Source of the DNA: an uncultured Planctomycetales bacterium
Lineage (GTDB): Bacteria; Omnitrophota; Gorgyraeia; Zapsychrales; JANLHA01
Direction: 5' to 3'
NCBI GenBank assembly: GCA_964474085.1
Contig: CAYYRJ010000005.1
Coordinates: forward strand, 23,244-87,243
Length of the DNA: 64,000 bases
Shown here: piece after piece, positions 4,142-59,674 of the stretch
Numbering within the stretch: position 1 is the stretch's first letter
Layout of the letters: the number at the start of each line of letters is the position of its first letter
Notes under the pieces: generated by a model
Database searches by the model: none
What the model was told of the DNA's origin: nothing
What the model saw: the letters and a program-made list of their open reading frames with translations, nothing else
Translations under genes and position numbers: made by a program

Positions 4142-5146
4142 ATGCCAGAACTACGTAAAGATCCGGTTATCGGGCGTTGGGTCATTATTGCTACTGAAAG
4201 AGCAAGACGGCCTGGTGTTTTTATCGATTCCCAAAAGAATACTTTTGATTCGGGGCATTGTTCGTTCTGTGACAATCAGGAAAAAGAAATTTATGCAGTG
4301 TATCCTCAGCCAGGCGGCCCGTGGAAAGTCCGTGTTGTCGAAAGCGGTACGCCTCTTTTGTCGACCCATGGAAAGTTTAGCCGAAAAGGTCACGGTCTTT
4401 ATGATGTGGTCAATGATTACGGCAGCCATGAGGTGGTCATTGAAACGCCGGAACATATTGCCAACATGGCGGATTTAAGCCAGGAACAAATTCGCATGGT
4501 TTTTGAAACCTACGCTGTCCGTTACAATGAACTTGAAAAAAACGCCAATTTTCAATATGTCATTGCTTACAAAAATTACGGCTGGGCGGCAGGTTCTCGT
4601 CGCATTGGGCATTCGCGTTCGCAGATCATTTCTACGTCGGTTATTCCTTTTAGCGCCAAAGAAAAACTTGCCGGAGCCAAAAAATATTATAATTACCGCG
4701 AACGCTGTCTGTATTGCGACATGATTGCCCAGGAGCTTGAAGCTAAGGTCCGCATCATTGCCGAGAGCGAACATTTTGTGGCGATGACACCGTTTGCGCC
4801 GCGTTTTATTTTTGAAATTTGGATTCTTCCCAAGAAGCATCATTGCGATTTTGGCAAAGGTGTTCTCGGACATGAGCATGATTTAGCGGGGTTGATCAAA
4901 GTCCTTTTGATGAAATTAAAAAAAGGATTGGATGACCCGGCGTATAATTATGTCATTCATTCTGCGCCATTTCGTCATGGGGAAAAATCTACGAAGTGGA
5001 AAACATTGGCTGAGGATTATCATTGGCATATCGAACTTTTGCCGAGATTAACGCGTGTGGCCGGTTTTGAGCGGGGTTCCGGATTTTATATTTCTTCGAT
5101 TCCACCGGAAAGTGTTGCGGACTTTTTGCGGGAGGTCAAAGTTTAA
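4142..5146 (+). CDS. GalT-like hexose-1-phosphate nucleotidyltransferase family protein (HIT superfamily), variant copy with HSRSQ in place of the H-x-H-x-Q motif
   Basis: 334 aa; CxxC zinc pair, C-terminal YHWHIELLP, GalT-family collinearity; residues 157-161 are H-S-R-S-Q (Arg where the nucleophilic His is expected). Confidence 0.7.
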   Translation: MPELRKDPVIGRWVIIATERARRPGVFIDSQKNTFDSGHCSFCDNQEKEIYAVYPQPGGPWKVRVVESGTPLLSTHGKFSRKGHGLYDVVNDYGSHEVVIETPEHIANMADLSQEQIRMVFETYAVRYNELEKNANFQYVIAYKNYGWAAGSRRIGHSRSQIISTSVIPFSAKEKLAGAKKYYNYRERCLYCDMIAQELEAKVRIIAESEHFVAMTPFAPRFIFEIWILPKKHHCDFGKGVLGHEHDLAGLIKVLLMKLKKGLDDPAYNYVIHSAPFRHGEKSTKWKTLAEDYHWHIELLPRLTRVAGFERGSGFYISSIPPESVADFLREVKV

Positions 5147-6150
5147 TGTCAGAAGTAAGGAGAGATCCGGTTATTGGCCGTTGGGTGATTGTCGAACAGC
5201 GCGAAAAGTCTTTGGGCCCTGCGGATTATGAAAAAGAGCCGCATGTTATTAAGCAGGCGGCGGTTTGTCAGTTTTGTGCAGGCCGTGAAGCGCAAACTCC
5301 ACCGGAAGTCGACGCAATTCGGCCGGGCGTGTATGCGCCCAATGCGATAGGCTGGCAGGCGCGTGTTGTCCCCAATAAATTTCCGGCACTGCGTATTGAA
5401 GGCGATTTGGGCCGTCGGGGCGTAGGGCTTTATGATATGAGCAATGGCGTAGGAGCTCATGAGGTTTTGATCGAAACGCCAGAGCACGCAAAAAATTTTG
5501 CGGATTATTCCGTTGATGAAGTCGTCAATGTCCTTAAGCTTTATCAAAGCCGCTCAGCGAGCTTGGCTAGAGATAAACGTTTTAAGTACATTATGATCTT
5601 TAAAAATTATGGCCAATCGGCCGGCGCCTCTGTTGAGCATGCGCACAGCCAGATTATTGCTTTGCCGATGGTGCCCAAATATGTCGCCGAAGAATTGGAA
5701 GGCGCAAAACAGTATTACGATTTTCGCGGGCGTTGTGTGTTTTGCGATATGATACAGCAAGAGTATCAGGACCAGCGACGGATTATTACCAGCAATGACG
5801 GGTTTATCAGTTTTTGCCCGTTTGTCCCGCGCTTTCCGTTTGAAAGCTGGATTTTCCCCAAAGACCATGGTTGCGACTTTGTCACTTTGCAAGACAAAGA
5901 GCGACGGGAATTGGCGGAAATTCTCAAAAGTGTTCTGTTGCGGATAAAGGTTTGTTTATCGGATCCTTCTTATAATTTTTATTTGCACGTCACTCCTGTG
6001 GATTACGAAAATCCGCAGAGCTATCATTGGCATATTGAAATTGTTCCGCAGTTGACCCGCGTTGCCGGGTTTGAGTGGGGGACCGGTTTTTATGTTGTCC
6101 GCACCGCCCCATCGGTTGCCGCCGAGCATTTGCGCGGCGCGATTTCTTAA
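5146..6150 (+). CDS. GalT-like hexose-1-phosphate nucleotidyltransferase family protein (canonical HAHSQ motif)
   Basis: 334 aa paralog of the upstream gene; start overlaps its stop (TAATG); CxxC, H165-A-H167-S-Q169, YHWHIEIVP. Confidence 0.75.
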   Translation: MSEVRRDPVIGRWVIVEQREKSLGPADYEKEPHVIKQAAVCQFCAGREAQTPPEVDAIRPGVYAPNAIGWQARVVPNKFPALRIEGDLGRRGVGLYDMSNGVGAHEVLIETPEHAKNFADYSVDEVVNVLKLYQSRSASLARDKRFKYIMIFKNYGQSAGASVEHAHSQIIALPMVPKYVAEELEGAKQYYDFRGRCVFCDMIQQEYQDQRRIITSNDGFISFCPFVPRFPFESWIFPKDHGCDFVTLQDKERRELAEILKSVLLRIKVCLSDPSYNFYLHVTPVDYENPQSYHWHIEIVPQLTRVAGFEWGTGFYVVRTAPSVAAEHLRGAIS

Positions 6151-11889: not shown

Positions 11890-11906
11890 TTGGAGAGGTT
11901 TATTCG

Positions 11907-12088
11907 ATGAATTTTACGGCTCAAGAAACGGTCCCCAGTGGATGGAATATAAAAATAAGAAATAGCTAGAGGGTTAAGGTGGTTAATTTTTAAGGCGAAT
12001 CGGAACGCAGCCCCGATTTTATCCCGCCGATAGGCGGGACTCCAGCGGGGATCGTTTCTTGAGCCGTAAAATTAACCACCTTAACCCG
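11907..12088 (+). repeat. 181-nt structured element: permuted inverted repeat (21-bp and 18-bp perfect arms) with internal GC hairpins
   Basis: 11910-11930 is the exact reverse complement of 12054-12074; 11971-11988 is the exact reverse complement of 12071-12088; inner hairpin CCCGCC-GATAG-GCGGG at 12023-12039. Confidence 0.6.
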
Positions 12089-15458: not shown

Positions 15459-15474
15459 TAGCTTGTGTTAACGA

Positions 15475-15549
15475 ATCCAAAAATCCTTTTGTGGCTCAAT
15501 TATTTGGTCCCTACTTCAGGGACTATTCGCCGAAAAAGTATTTTCGGAT
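15475..15549 (+). repeat. structured intergenic repeat, family copy 1 (core GGCTCAATTATTTGG-hairpin-ATTCGCC inside a 16-bp imperfect outer stem)
   Basis: Shares conserved flanks with the copies at 28348 and 37420; inner hairpin TCCC-ACTTCA-GGGA differs but stays paired. Confidence 0.6.
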
Positions 15550-15678
15550 TGGCCAAGAGTGGGTCATTCAATTTTTGTATTCTACAATAAATATAAAAAA
15601 TTATTATTTTTAACTTAAACTTATTTGCCTATAATGGCGATAGAATTTTACTGGTGCACTGACAAAAGGGAGGAAACC

Positions 15679-26766: not shown

Positions 26767-26957
26767 GTATTATTTGATGTATTCCATTAAGGCAGAACAA
26801 TCCATCGACATATAGTTGAGACATAGAATTAAATATAGATTCCTCCCCCTTGCAGCCTAGGTGAGATGGGGAGAAATTTAATGATATTTGTCGACGATGA
26901 ATTAGCTCTTTTCGTCGACAACATAAAATTCTTAAATGGTGTGCCGCTAAATCTTTG

Positions 26958-27040
26958 GATCCCTGCTTTCGCAGGGATGACATTGCCTTTTTTGTCATTC
27001 ACAGGAAAATATTTTGTCATTCCCGCGAAAGCGGGAATCC
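26958..27040. repeat. inverted pair of GTCATYC-hairpin-GRATC palindromic units (IPAKAGI/SRESGNP-type repeat)
   Basis: ggatccctgctttcgcagggatgac (26958-26982) and gtcattcccgcgaaagcgggaatcc (27016-27040); three six-frame ORFs here encode IPAKAGIQ/SRESGNP peptides typical of this repeat class. Confidence 0.7.
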
Positions 27041-28328: not shown

Positions 28329-28347
28329 ATTTTTTGCGTTAATTTTG

Positions 28348-28430
28348 CCGGTTCTCAAAGTCCTTTTTCGGCTCAATTGTTTGGCGCCTCTATGGCGCTA
28401 TTCGCCTTCAAAAGGACTTTGAAAACCGGC
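28348..28430 (+). repeat. structured intergenic repeat, family copy 2 (21-bp outer stem with one mismatch; core TCGGCTCAATTGTTTGG-CGCC-TCTAT-GGCG-CTATTCGCC)
   Basis: gccggttctcaaagtcctttt ... aaaaggactttgaaaaccggc encloses the conserved core. Confidence 0.65.
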
Positions 28431-28493
28431 AGCCAGCATGATGAAATGATCAATAAAAATATGTATCGACGTACTATAAAGGAAAAATAAATT

Positions 28494-37416: not shown

Positions 37417-37419
37417 GCG

Positions 37420-37502
37420 ACAGAGTTGATATTGAGTTTTTCGGCTCAATTGTTTGGCGCCTCTATGGCGCAATTCGCCTAAAAACTCAATATCAACTCT
37501 GT
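37420..37502 (+). repeat. structured intergenic repeat, family copy 3 (perfect 22-bp outer stem; core CGGCTCAATTGTTTGG-CGCC-TCTAT-GGCG-CAATTCGCC)
   Basis: acagagttgatattgagttttt is the exact reverse complement of aaaaactcaatatcaactctgt; core nearly identical to copy 2. Confidence 0.7.
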
Positions 37503-37524
37503 CAATCATATAGGAGATATTGTT

Positions 37525-59452: not shown

Positions 59453-59526
59453 CGGGGAGTAGCGCAGCTGGCTAGCGCACTTGCTTTGGGAGCAAGGGGT
59501 CCCGGGTTCGAATCCCGGCTTCCCGA
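59453..59526 (+). tRNA. tRNA-Pro (anticodon UGG)
   Basis: Cloverleaf folded by hand: C1-G72 acceptor stem (typical of bacterial tRNA-Pro), D stem GCGC/GCGC, anticodon stem CTTGC/GCAAG with loop TTTGGGA, T arm CCGGG-TTCGAAT-CCCGG; no encoded CCA. Confidence 0.8.
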
Positions 59527-59637
59527 CTTTAATTTATATTTTTTGAAAGGGATTCGAAGCCGACCCGAGCGCCATTGGTACAAGCGAGGGCGGCCGGCTT
59601 CGGAGGAGCCCCGATGAATATCGGGGCGGGGGAGAAG

Positions 59638-59658
59638 GAATCCCGGCTTCCCGACTTT
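59638..59658 (+). repeat. 21-bp direct repeat of the tRNA-Pro 3' end (copy of 59510-59530)
   Basis: gaatcccggcttcccgacttt occurs exactly at both positions, 128 bp apart. Confidence 0.8.
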
Positions 59659-59674
59659 TATTTTTTTCTTTCCC

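Follow-up and report, generated by a model that had tools for sequence, protein, structure and literature searches.

Variable arms around a conserved, invertible core: a dispersed hairpin repeat in the gene spacers of Omnitrophota

Hairpin repeats in the window

The spacer between the genes of a class I/II aminotransferase (Aminotran_1_2 protein) and YchF contains a long hairpin at positions 28346-28431 of the window, by which we mean the whole 64,000-nucleotide stretch under analysis. An earlier note on this DNA had placed a structured hairpin here, as copy 2 of a repeat family, and its sequence, its folding and the identification of the flanking genes bear this out. The family with a conserved core is real, and it has four members inside the window instead of the three originally counted (Table 1). 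The outer stem of copy 2 does contain the single mismatch ascribed to it, a C·A on the + strand that equals a G·U on the - strand; the stem measures 22 bp, not 21 bp. On the - strand, the F strand of this copy, the core reads GGC-GAAUA-GCGCC-AUAGA-GGCGC-CAAACAAUUGA-GCC and is composed of a junction module, GGCGAAU/UUGAGCC, and a 5-bp apical hairpin. Folding energies (MFE) of -48.6 kcal/mol for the + strand (z = -6.8) and -50.0 kcal/mol for the - strand (z = -8.6) lie far below those of shuffled controls. The covariance model scores copy 2 at 102.8 bits on the - strand versus 25.1 on the + strand, a comparison that is descriptive only, as the model was built on the - (F) strand.

Table 1. Members of the repeat family in the window, with the parts of copy 2
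Feature	Positions	Strand	Description
Large relative	11971-12087	+ (F strand = + strand)	queF-rph spacer; perfect 20-bp stem, 11971-11990 / 12068-12087
Copy 1 (type B)	15474-15550	-	divergent-gene spacer; 17-bp imperfect stem; core 15493-15531; 61.5 bits
Copy 2, left arm of outer stem	28346-28367		22 nt, tgccggttctcaaagtcctttt; pairs with 28410-28431
Copy 2, left junction			tc, between left arm and core
Copy 2, type-A core	28370-28406	-	37 nt, GGCTCAATTGTTTGGCGCCTCTATGGCGCTATTCGCC
Copy 2, right junction			ttc, between core and right arm
Copy 2, right arm of outer stem	28410-28431		aaaaggactttgaaaaccggca
Copy 3	37419-37503	-	dinB-rmuC spacer; perfect 23-bp stem, 37419-37441 / 37481-37503; type-A core 37443-37479

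The near-identical core claimed for copies 2 and 3 is confirmed: a 39-nt core string of copy 2 is found again at 37441-37479 with 1 mismatch, against 0 matches in 100 shuffles. The companion claim, that the outer stems are entirely different and still pair, stands for these two copies, where pairing is kept and the stems are unrelated except for the innermost TTTT/AAAA. It fails family-wide, since a shared stem consensus, TTAGCCGATTTAGGAAATCCTTTTT, is recognizable in most copies. Copy 1 has the same internal-loop sequences, and its apical hairpin is a compensatory replacement of CGCC/GGCG by TCCCT/AGGGA. The large relative encloses a different 58-nt interior within the same junction module, GGCGAAT...TTGAGCC (11994-12065), and the covariance model derived from the small copies recovers it independently. 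Its 3' part is repeated, incompletely and in inverted orientation, at 11905-11942. This second stretch can pair with 12041-12073 over ~27 bp, so that two long helices compete upstream of rph, each excluding the other.

Several other repeats are present in the window. Another kind of palindromic unit, ~23 nt long and reading GTCATYCCYGC-GAAA-GCRGGRAT, is present twice at 26959-27038, the two copies being inverted in a REP-doublet-like arrangement (pattern ATTCCC-N8-GGGAAT), and the unit also occurs at L008:3981-4003 and L019:3460-3482. This stretch falls inside the 5' extension of the predicted aminotransferase ORF, which has a TTG start at 26955. Because the Pfam match of the aminotransferase begins at residue 118 and its orthologues measure 386-411 aa, translation probably begins close to 27.1 kb, which would make the stretch intergenic. 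At tRNA-Pro(TGG) (59453-59527), a 34-nt stretch spanning the last ~18 nt of the gene and the next ~16 nt (59510-59543) recurs 128 nt further on (59638-59671) with 88% identity, perhaps as an att-like trace of a past integration. The adjacent genes at 4142-5092 and 5146-6096, 77-82% identical over the reported stretches (direct repeats D2 and D14; spacing 1004 nt), look like tandem paralogues.

Distribution and gene context of the family

Approximately 60 further copies are found in at least seven Omnitrophota assemblies. Exact-core instances number 53. The window accounts for 3, and an exact-pattern scan of one genome per species supplies the other 50, at 48 loci in five MAGs labeled Candidatus Omnitrophota or 'uncultivated Planctomycetales'; this pattern, by which most copies were found, demands an intact core. 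Additional copies come from contigs fetched via YchF orthologues (L050, L079-L081) and from JGI metagenomes (L059, L065, L072), where the strict pattern has 0 matches and a looser one returns 6 real relatives and 14 chance matches. Among the relatives, those of another lineage (type C: L062, L068, L073; JGI Ga0247842/Ga0247841) form units of ~124 nt with 92% identity and are multi-copy on a 325-kb contig. Type C has the junctions GGCTCAA...ATTCGCC and the long arms of the family, together with a third apical hairpin, CCGTC-TTCG-GACGG. As the apical hairpin differs and the junctions stay the same, the invariant of the superfamily is the junction module, GGC-GAAU...UUGA-GCC on the complementary strand.

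Scans of viral contigs gave 0 matches to the family, and association with phages or plasmids is rejected on this ground. A known RNA family is likewise rejected: Rfam 15 at the gathering threshold reports only a tRNA elsewhere in the window, and a permissive search (E<=10) returns only generic miRNA-hairpin matches of 12-26 bits against thresholds of 74-119. Our literature search found no paper describing the repeat, nor anything comparable for the uncultivated phylum Omnitrophota. The repeat is best called a previously undescribed variant of the dispersed-palindromic-repeat kind, and it can serve as a lineage marker.

Every copy is intergenic: 30 lie between co-directional, 3 between divergent and 2 between convergent genes. 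Copies begin ~0-30 nt after the upstream stop codon and 45-100 nt before the next start, with the core 23-55 nt past the stop codon. The core points in the same direction as the co-directional genes in 13 cases and in the opposite direction in 17, its orientation being random relative to genes. There are no T-runs in the flanks of the copies. An intrinsic terminator, for which a G+C-rich hairpin with a short loop would precede a U-tract, is rejected for copy 2, which has no terminator-like signal on either strand and no U-tract, and a sigma-70 promoter of its own is rejected as well, just weak promoter-like hexamers being present at the element. The string TGGCGC-N5-TGGCGC resembles the -24/-12 spacing of a sigma-54 promoter, but the motif is gone in type B.

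Insertion and retention of the hairpin

The whole hairpin is an inserted unit, as sister lineages with empty sites demonstrate. Contigs fetched via YchF orthologues, and thereby chosen independently of the element, reveal that the aminotransferase-ychF spacer (site 2) is empty in L051 and L052, where stop and start codons overlap, and in L056 and L057, where the spacer measures 39 nt; L053-L055 have unrelated hairpins instead. The dinB-rmuC spacer (site 3) is empty in L055, with 15 nt between the genes. Relatives at ~70% nucleotide identity to the window contain no copy in ~84 kb. The element occupies both sites in L050 (~78% identity to the window) and site 3 in L008 (~74%), and orthologous copies at site 3 are also present in L049 and L020. 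Arms and core alike are missing from the empty sites, and insertion of a core into pre-existing hairpins is therefore rejected.

The element that is present or absent at these orthologous sites (empty in L051, L052, L055, L056 and L057) is 85-95 nt long and has no coding capacity. No conserved terminal inverted repeats are seen at its outer ends, which are variable and display just a loose consensus (TTAGCCGATTT...) in a subfamily. No target-site duplication is visible by eye at 50 copies, the empty sites, at ~70% identity, being too diverged to define the edges. A linked transposase is not borne out, as the fetched loci around 48 copies (<=8 kb each) have no recurrent or shared ORF, and no IS was found.

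Gene spacers without the family often hold other long hairpins (L027:1405-1580; L053:9920-9965; L055:1480-1575), for example a stem GGGATGTCATGGTGYCCCG around an 84-nt loop, or CCCCCTCTTT-GAGT-AAAGAGGGGG. Different hairpin elements seem to have colonized the spacers of these genomes on repeated occasions.

Between the window and L050, the cores are 36/37 identical at two sites sampled without reference to the core, with flanks 76-79% and arms ~75-80% identical at the same sites. The single variable core position, W, toggles between A and T. Lineage-specific core variants are common to several loci: TTTTG in L059, L065 and L072, and TTCCG twice in L009. Some old copies decay, leaving a degenerate remnant in L014:5380-5490, a truncated one in L013:5970 and one with 4 changes in L041:3786, and at L027:1405-1580 a copy has been replaced by a different hairpin. 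Decay or replacement of old copies is consistent with a selfish element, whereas the cores that are retained hardly vary, which suggests selection at the host level or gene conversion. As causes of core conservation, purifying selection, ectopic gene conversion over the identical stretch of ~50 nt and recent amplification cannot be separated.

Paired evolution of the arms and inversion of the core

The outer stem has a median length of 22 bp and ranges from 17 to 28 bp. Counted outward from the core, positions 1-4 are U-A, positions 5-6 mostly C-G, and positions 7-22 accept all four Watson-Crick types. Among 56 copies aligned to the covariance model, 96.1% of cells form standard pairs, versus 69.9% in column shuffles and at most 50% with slid partners. 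Double-sided changes occur in all 22 outer-stem pairs of this alignment, the three GGC/GCC pairs are invariant, and two pairs of the apical hairpin covary, the latter differing compensatorily among types A, B and C. The two arms evolve in concert, which is also apparent in single comparisons: the window and L008 differ at site 3 by a compensated 1-bp insertion in both arms, and the window and L050 by compensated paired substitutions. A canonical kink-turn is rejected on reading the sequence: tandem G·A is possible on the F strand beside GGC/GCC, but a 3-nt bulge adjoining a canonical stem is missing.

At roughly half of the orthologous sites, aligned by their flanks, the genomes differ in which way the core points between the same two genes. 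Both orientations are found at six or more orthologous sites between genomes, with flank identities of 74-97%. At site 3, the window, L049 and L020 have the core one way, and L050 and L008 the other. Inverted pairs with closely similar flanks include L011/L033 (90-97% identical), L003:4031/L027 (93-95%; set L003/L027/L041) and L016/L035 (94%), and further inverted pairs are L007-L040/L030 and L003:3117/L014-L041. The unpaired junction nucleotides flip along with the core, so that CTCTAC|core|TTAAGAG becomes CTCTTAA|rc-core|GTAGAG, while the arms stay homologous. The fetched loci around 48 copies contain no recombinase-like recurrent ORF. At site 2, five assemblies at least 99% identical to the window all have the core in the window's orientation, and flipping at this site is therefore slow, without rapid phase variation.

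An assembly artefact behind the flips is unlikely, because assemblers usually work with a k that exceeds the arm length (17-28 nt) and both states of site 3 were assembled independently, each in at least two assemblies. We also considered contig ends as a sign of inversion at the population level and rejected them as such. The contigs stop 9 nt outside the core, and the resulting shared stretch (9+37+9 = 55) has the length of a k-mer that assemblers often use; the breaks may therefore just reflect the repeat. The shared stretch of ~55 nt coincides with metagenome assembly breaks in these organisms. In an ENA contig 99.5% identical to the window, L001:676-727 includes 10 N within the core (…GGCGCTNNNNNNNNNNTCAAAAGG…), which looks like masking or scaffolding at the repeat.

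Strand asymmetry of the stem mismatches

The stem mismatches are strongly asymmetric between strands. Read on the strand used in the earlier note, they comprise 49 C·A and 13 G·T; on its complement, the F strand, the mismatches are G·U or G·T wobbles. Symmetric scoring, with one event per orthologous site, gives 57 F-strand and 11 R-strand wobbles (p ~1e-8). The bias has the same direction where the strand first described is sense (14:1) and where it is antisense (21:6) to the flanking genes. Folding is on average stronger on the F strand, by 1.3 kcal/mol. The two members of the inverted pair L011/L033 have acquired different transitions, each of which gives a wobble on the F strand of its own copy. 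Pairing is thus preserved preferentially on the F strand, GGCGAAU...UUGAGCC, whatever the direction of the host genes.

For copies 2 and 3, the F strand runs antisense to the neighboring genes. The wobble bias goes with the core, whatever the gene direction, and the constrained strand of copy 2 is therefore antisense to the aminotransferase-ychF transcript. Two implications of the original description are not supported by these observations. The + strand had implicitly been taken as the relevant one, and the mismatches are G·U wobbles on its complement regardless of gene direction; a place for the element in the upstream mRNA 3' UTR had been implied, which is unsupported given the random orientation (13 same, 17 opposite) and the inversion of the core at orthologous sites. 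A repair bias removing G·T on the strand that extrudes would reverse the F-strand assignment. Type C departs from types A and B in that both the cUUCGg loop and a G·T wobble of its apical hairpin are on the R strand.

Discussion

We see about an even chance that the copies represent a clade-specific, non-autonomous palindromic element of the REP/MITE-like kind, its arms kept paired and its core flipped by template switching, with one folded single strand recognized, probably by a protein. The family would have spread into short gene spacers of the ancestor of this Omnitrophota group and would have been inherited vertically from then on. The unit would be the whole hairpin of ~85-95 nt, made up of a freely changing stem of 17-28 bp, a conserved junction (four U-A pairs, then GGC/GCC), an asymmetric internal loop and a short apical hairpin.

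Template switching between the arms of inverted repeats homogenizes the arms and inverts spacers or loops (PMC8604942; PMC8794818), and it has been documented to insert in parallel into both halves of a stem (PMC8794818; PMC8604942). Short-range template switching would be the most economical account of the in-place flips and the concerted arms together: copying of one arm from the other would lead to compensated substitutions and indels, and could invert the spacer. The wobble signature linked to the core implies recognition of a particular folded single strand, and the element might accordingly be used in this form, as ssDNA or RNA. The signature points to a candidate partner protein, which would be a transposase that has been domesticated or a factor that binds RNA or ssDNA. 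Such a trans-acting protein would recognize the invariant junction and the apical hairpin; it could be a mobilizing enzyme (HUH/Y1 transposase-like activity, as in REP/RAYT) or a host protein that co-opted the element. If the copies are transcribed within operons, in either orientation, the helix of ~22 bp may act as an RNase III-size duplex or as an exonuclease barrier between cistrons, an effect which the host might tolerate or exploit.

The location of copies between co-directional genes, ~0-30 nt after a stop codon and 45-100 nt before the next start, would also suit a cis-acting structured RNA of operon transcripts, transcribed with the flanking genes and serving as an RNase III processing site, an mRNA stabilizer or, by means of the conserved loop, a protein-binding motif. 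Strong covariation in two helices around a conserved internal loop is characteristic of bona fide RNA motifs, and the F-strand junction could, judging by its nucleotides, form tandem G·A/A·G pairs beside GGC/GCC. RNase III acts on duplexes of about 22 bp, a size matched by the stem. We nevertheless consider this explanation unlikely: orientation is random relative to genes (13:17) and flips at orthologous sites, and the wobble bias tracks the core instead of the sense strand, with the constrained strand of copy 2 antisense to the mRNA; the repeat also has neither an Rfam match nor a U-tract. Orientation independence would be expected of a double-stranded DNA site, and the core might be one for a nucleoid or architectural protein, flanked by inverted repeats on the model of E. 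coli RIP/BIME-1, where an IHF site lies between two inverted REPs. Copy number and intergenic placement resemble those of BIMEs, and the core string TCAATTGTTTG fits 7 of the 9 specified positions of the IHF consensus, WATCAANNNNTTR. This partial match is limited to types A and B and is lost in type C and the large variant. A duplex site would moreover leave the strand-specific wobble bias, the covariation of the apical hairpin and the need for a flanking palindrome of 22 bp unexplained, and we hold it to be very improbable.

The flips themselves could be functional if the loop, as RNA or DNA, worked only with the F strand in one direction relative to the operon; inversion would then toggle it, and each genome would have many slow ON/OFF switches. 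Such an invertible switch would fit the occurrence of both core orientations at the same site in related genomes (flank identity 74-97%) and would explain a conserved core despite its random-looking orientation, and switching back and forth would explain the F-strand wobble bias under either present orientation. It is rendered improbable by the uniform orientation at site 2 in five assemblies of at least 99% identity and by the absence of a recombinase gene near the copies in the fetched loci, and to our knowledge a 41-nt spacer is too short for known site-specific invertases. The contig breaks at the element, for their part, may just reflect the shared 55-mer, given its match to an assembler k-mer size. 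We assign a similarly small chance to the copies being a host-retained, strand-specific protein-binding module of RNA or ssDNA (GGCGAAU/UUGAGCC plus the apical hairpin), with inversion between the arms switching its orientation in the operon over evolutionary time. If this were true, dozens of operon junctions per genome would have a slow heritable ON/OFF switch acting post-transcriptionally.

Comparison with known elements

Dispersed palindromic repeats are known mainly from cultivated Proteobacteria. The REP/REPIN-RAYT systems of Enterobacteria and Pseudomonas have much in common with the Omnitrophota repeat: the units are short, extragenic, palindromic, without coding capacity and present in tens to hundreds of copies; they form hairpins of ~100 nt, are vertically inherited and long-lived at orthologous sites, and a trans-acting enzyme is believed to process them in the form of a folded single strand (PMC3116915). 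In a REPIN, however, each arm contains a conserved REP, the sequence that is recognized, and the spacer or loop is variable, whereas the Omnitrophota repeat has variable arms, with all four Watson-Crick types at stem positions 7-22, and a conserved loop. This inside-out conservation, with the loop constrained and the stem free, is unusual. The Omnitrophota repeat also has no GTAG-type motif, and while a RAYT is typically a single-copy gene flanked by repeats, none was found near the copies in the fetched loci. Presence or absence at orthologous sites and the lack of coding capacity are features shared with MITEs, but MITE copies have conserved terminal inverted repeats in common with an autonomous IS, whereas the Omnitrophota repeat has variable outer ends and no IS was found.

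The Correia/NEMIS elements of Neisseria and the ERIC/YPAL elements of enterobacteria are miniature intergenic insertions that occur in either orientation, are co-transcribed with their neighbors and form long hairpins; Correia elements have a central IHF site and are cut by RNase III. The Omnitrophota repeat resembles both in being a miniature intergenic insertion in either orientation with a long hairpin. Terminal inverted repeats are conserved in both of these groups, with a TA target duplication in Correia, whereas the ends of the Omnitrophota repeat are not conserved and no duplication is seen. We know of no description of in-place inversion of the center for Correia/NEMIS or ERIC/YPAL.

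Integron attC sites have conserved ends (R''/R' boxes, RYYYAAC / GTTRRRY), a variable center and extrahelical bases, and lie in cassette arrays beside an integrase. They are, like the Omnitrophota repeat, sequence-variable hairpins with a conserved structure, and they act, as is proposed for the repeat, in the form of a folded single strand with one strand preferred. Conserved ends, a variable center, extrahelical bases, arrays and an integrase are all unseen in the Omnitrophota repeat, whose ends have no R''/R' boxes by sequence and whose copies are single and scattered among housekeeping genes. With invertons, the repeat shares a segment flanked by inverted repeats and seen both ways between genomes, but not the presence of both orientations in one population (five assemblies are alike at site 2) or an invertase nearby in the fetched loci.

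Small hairpin-loop inversions in chloroplast spacers are a further template-switch-like example. Hairpin mutation by template switching has the multi-base compensatory changes, the parallel insertions into both stem halves and the complete loop inversion with the stem retained that are observed in the Omnitrophota repeat (PMC8794818; PMC8604942). It is a mutational process and not an element, and it explains the arms and the flip, but not the conservation of the core, the dispersal of the family or the strand preference. The Omnitrophota repeat provides a clean natural example, in bacterial chromosomes and over species-level divergence, of a long hairpin that is maintained with its loop inverted, the pattern predicted for replication template switching.
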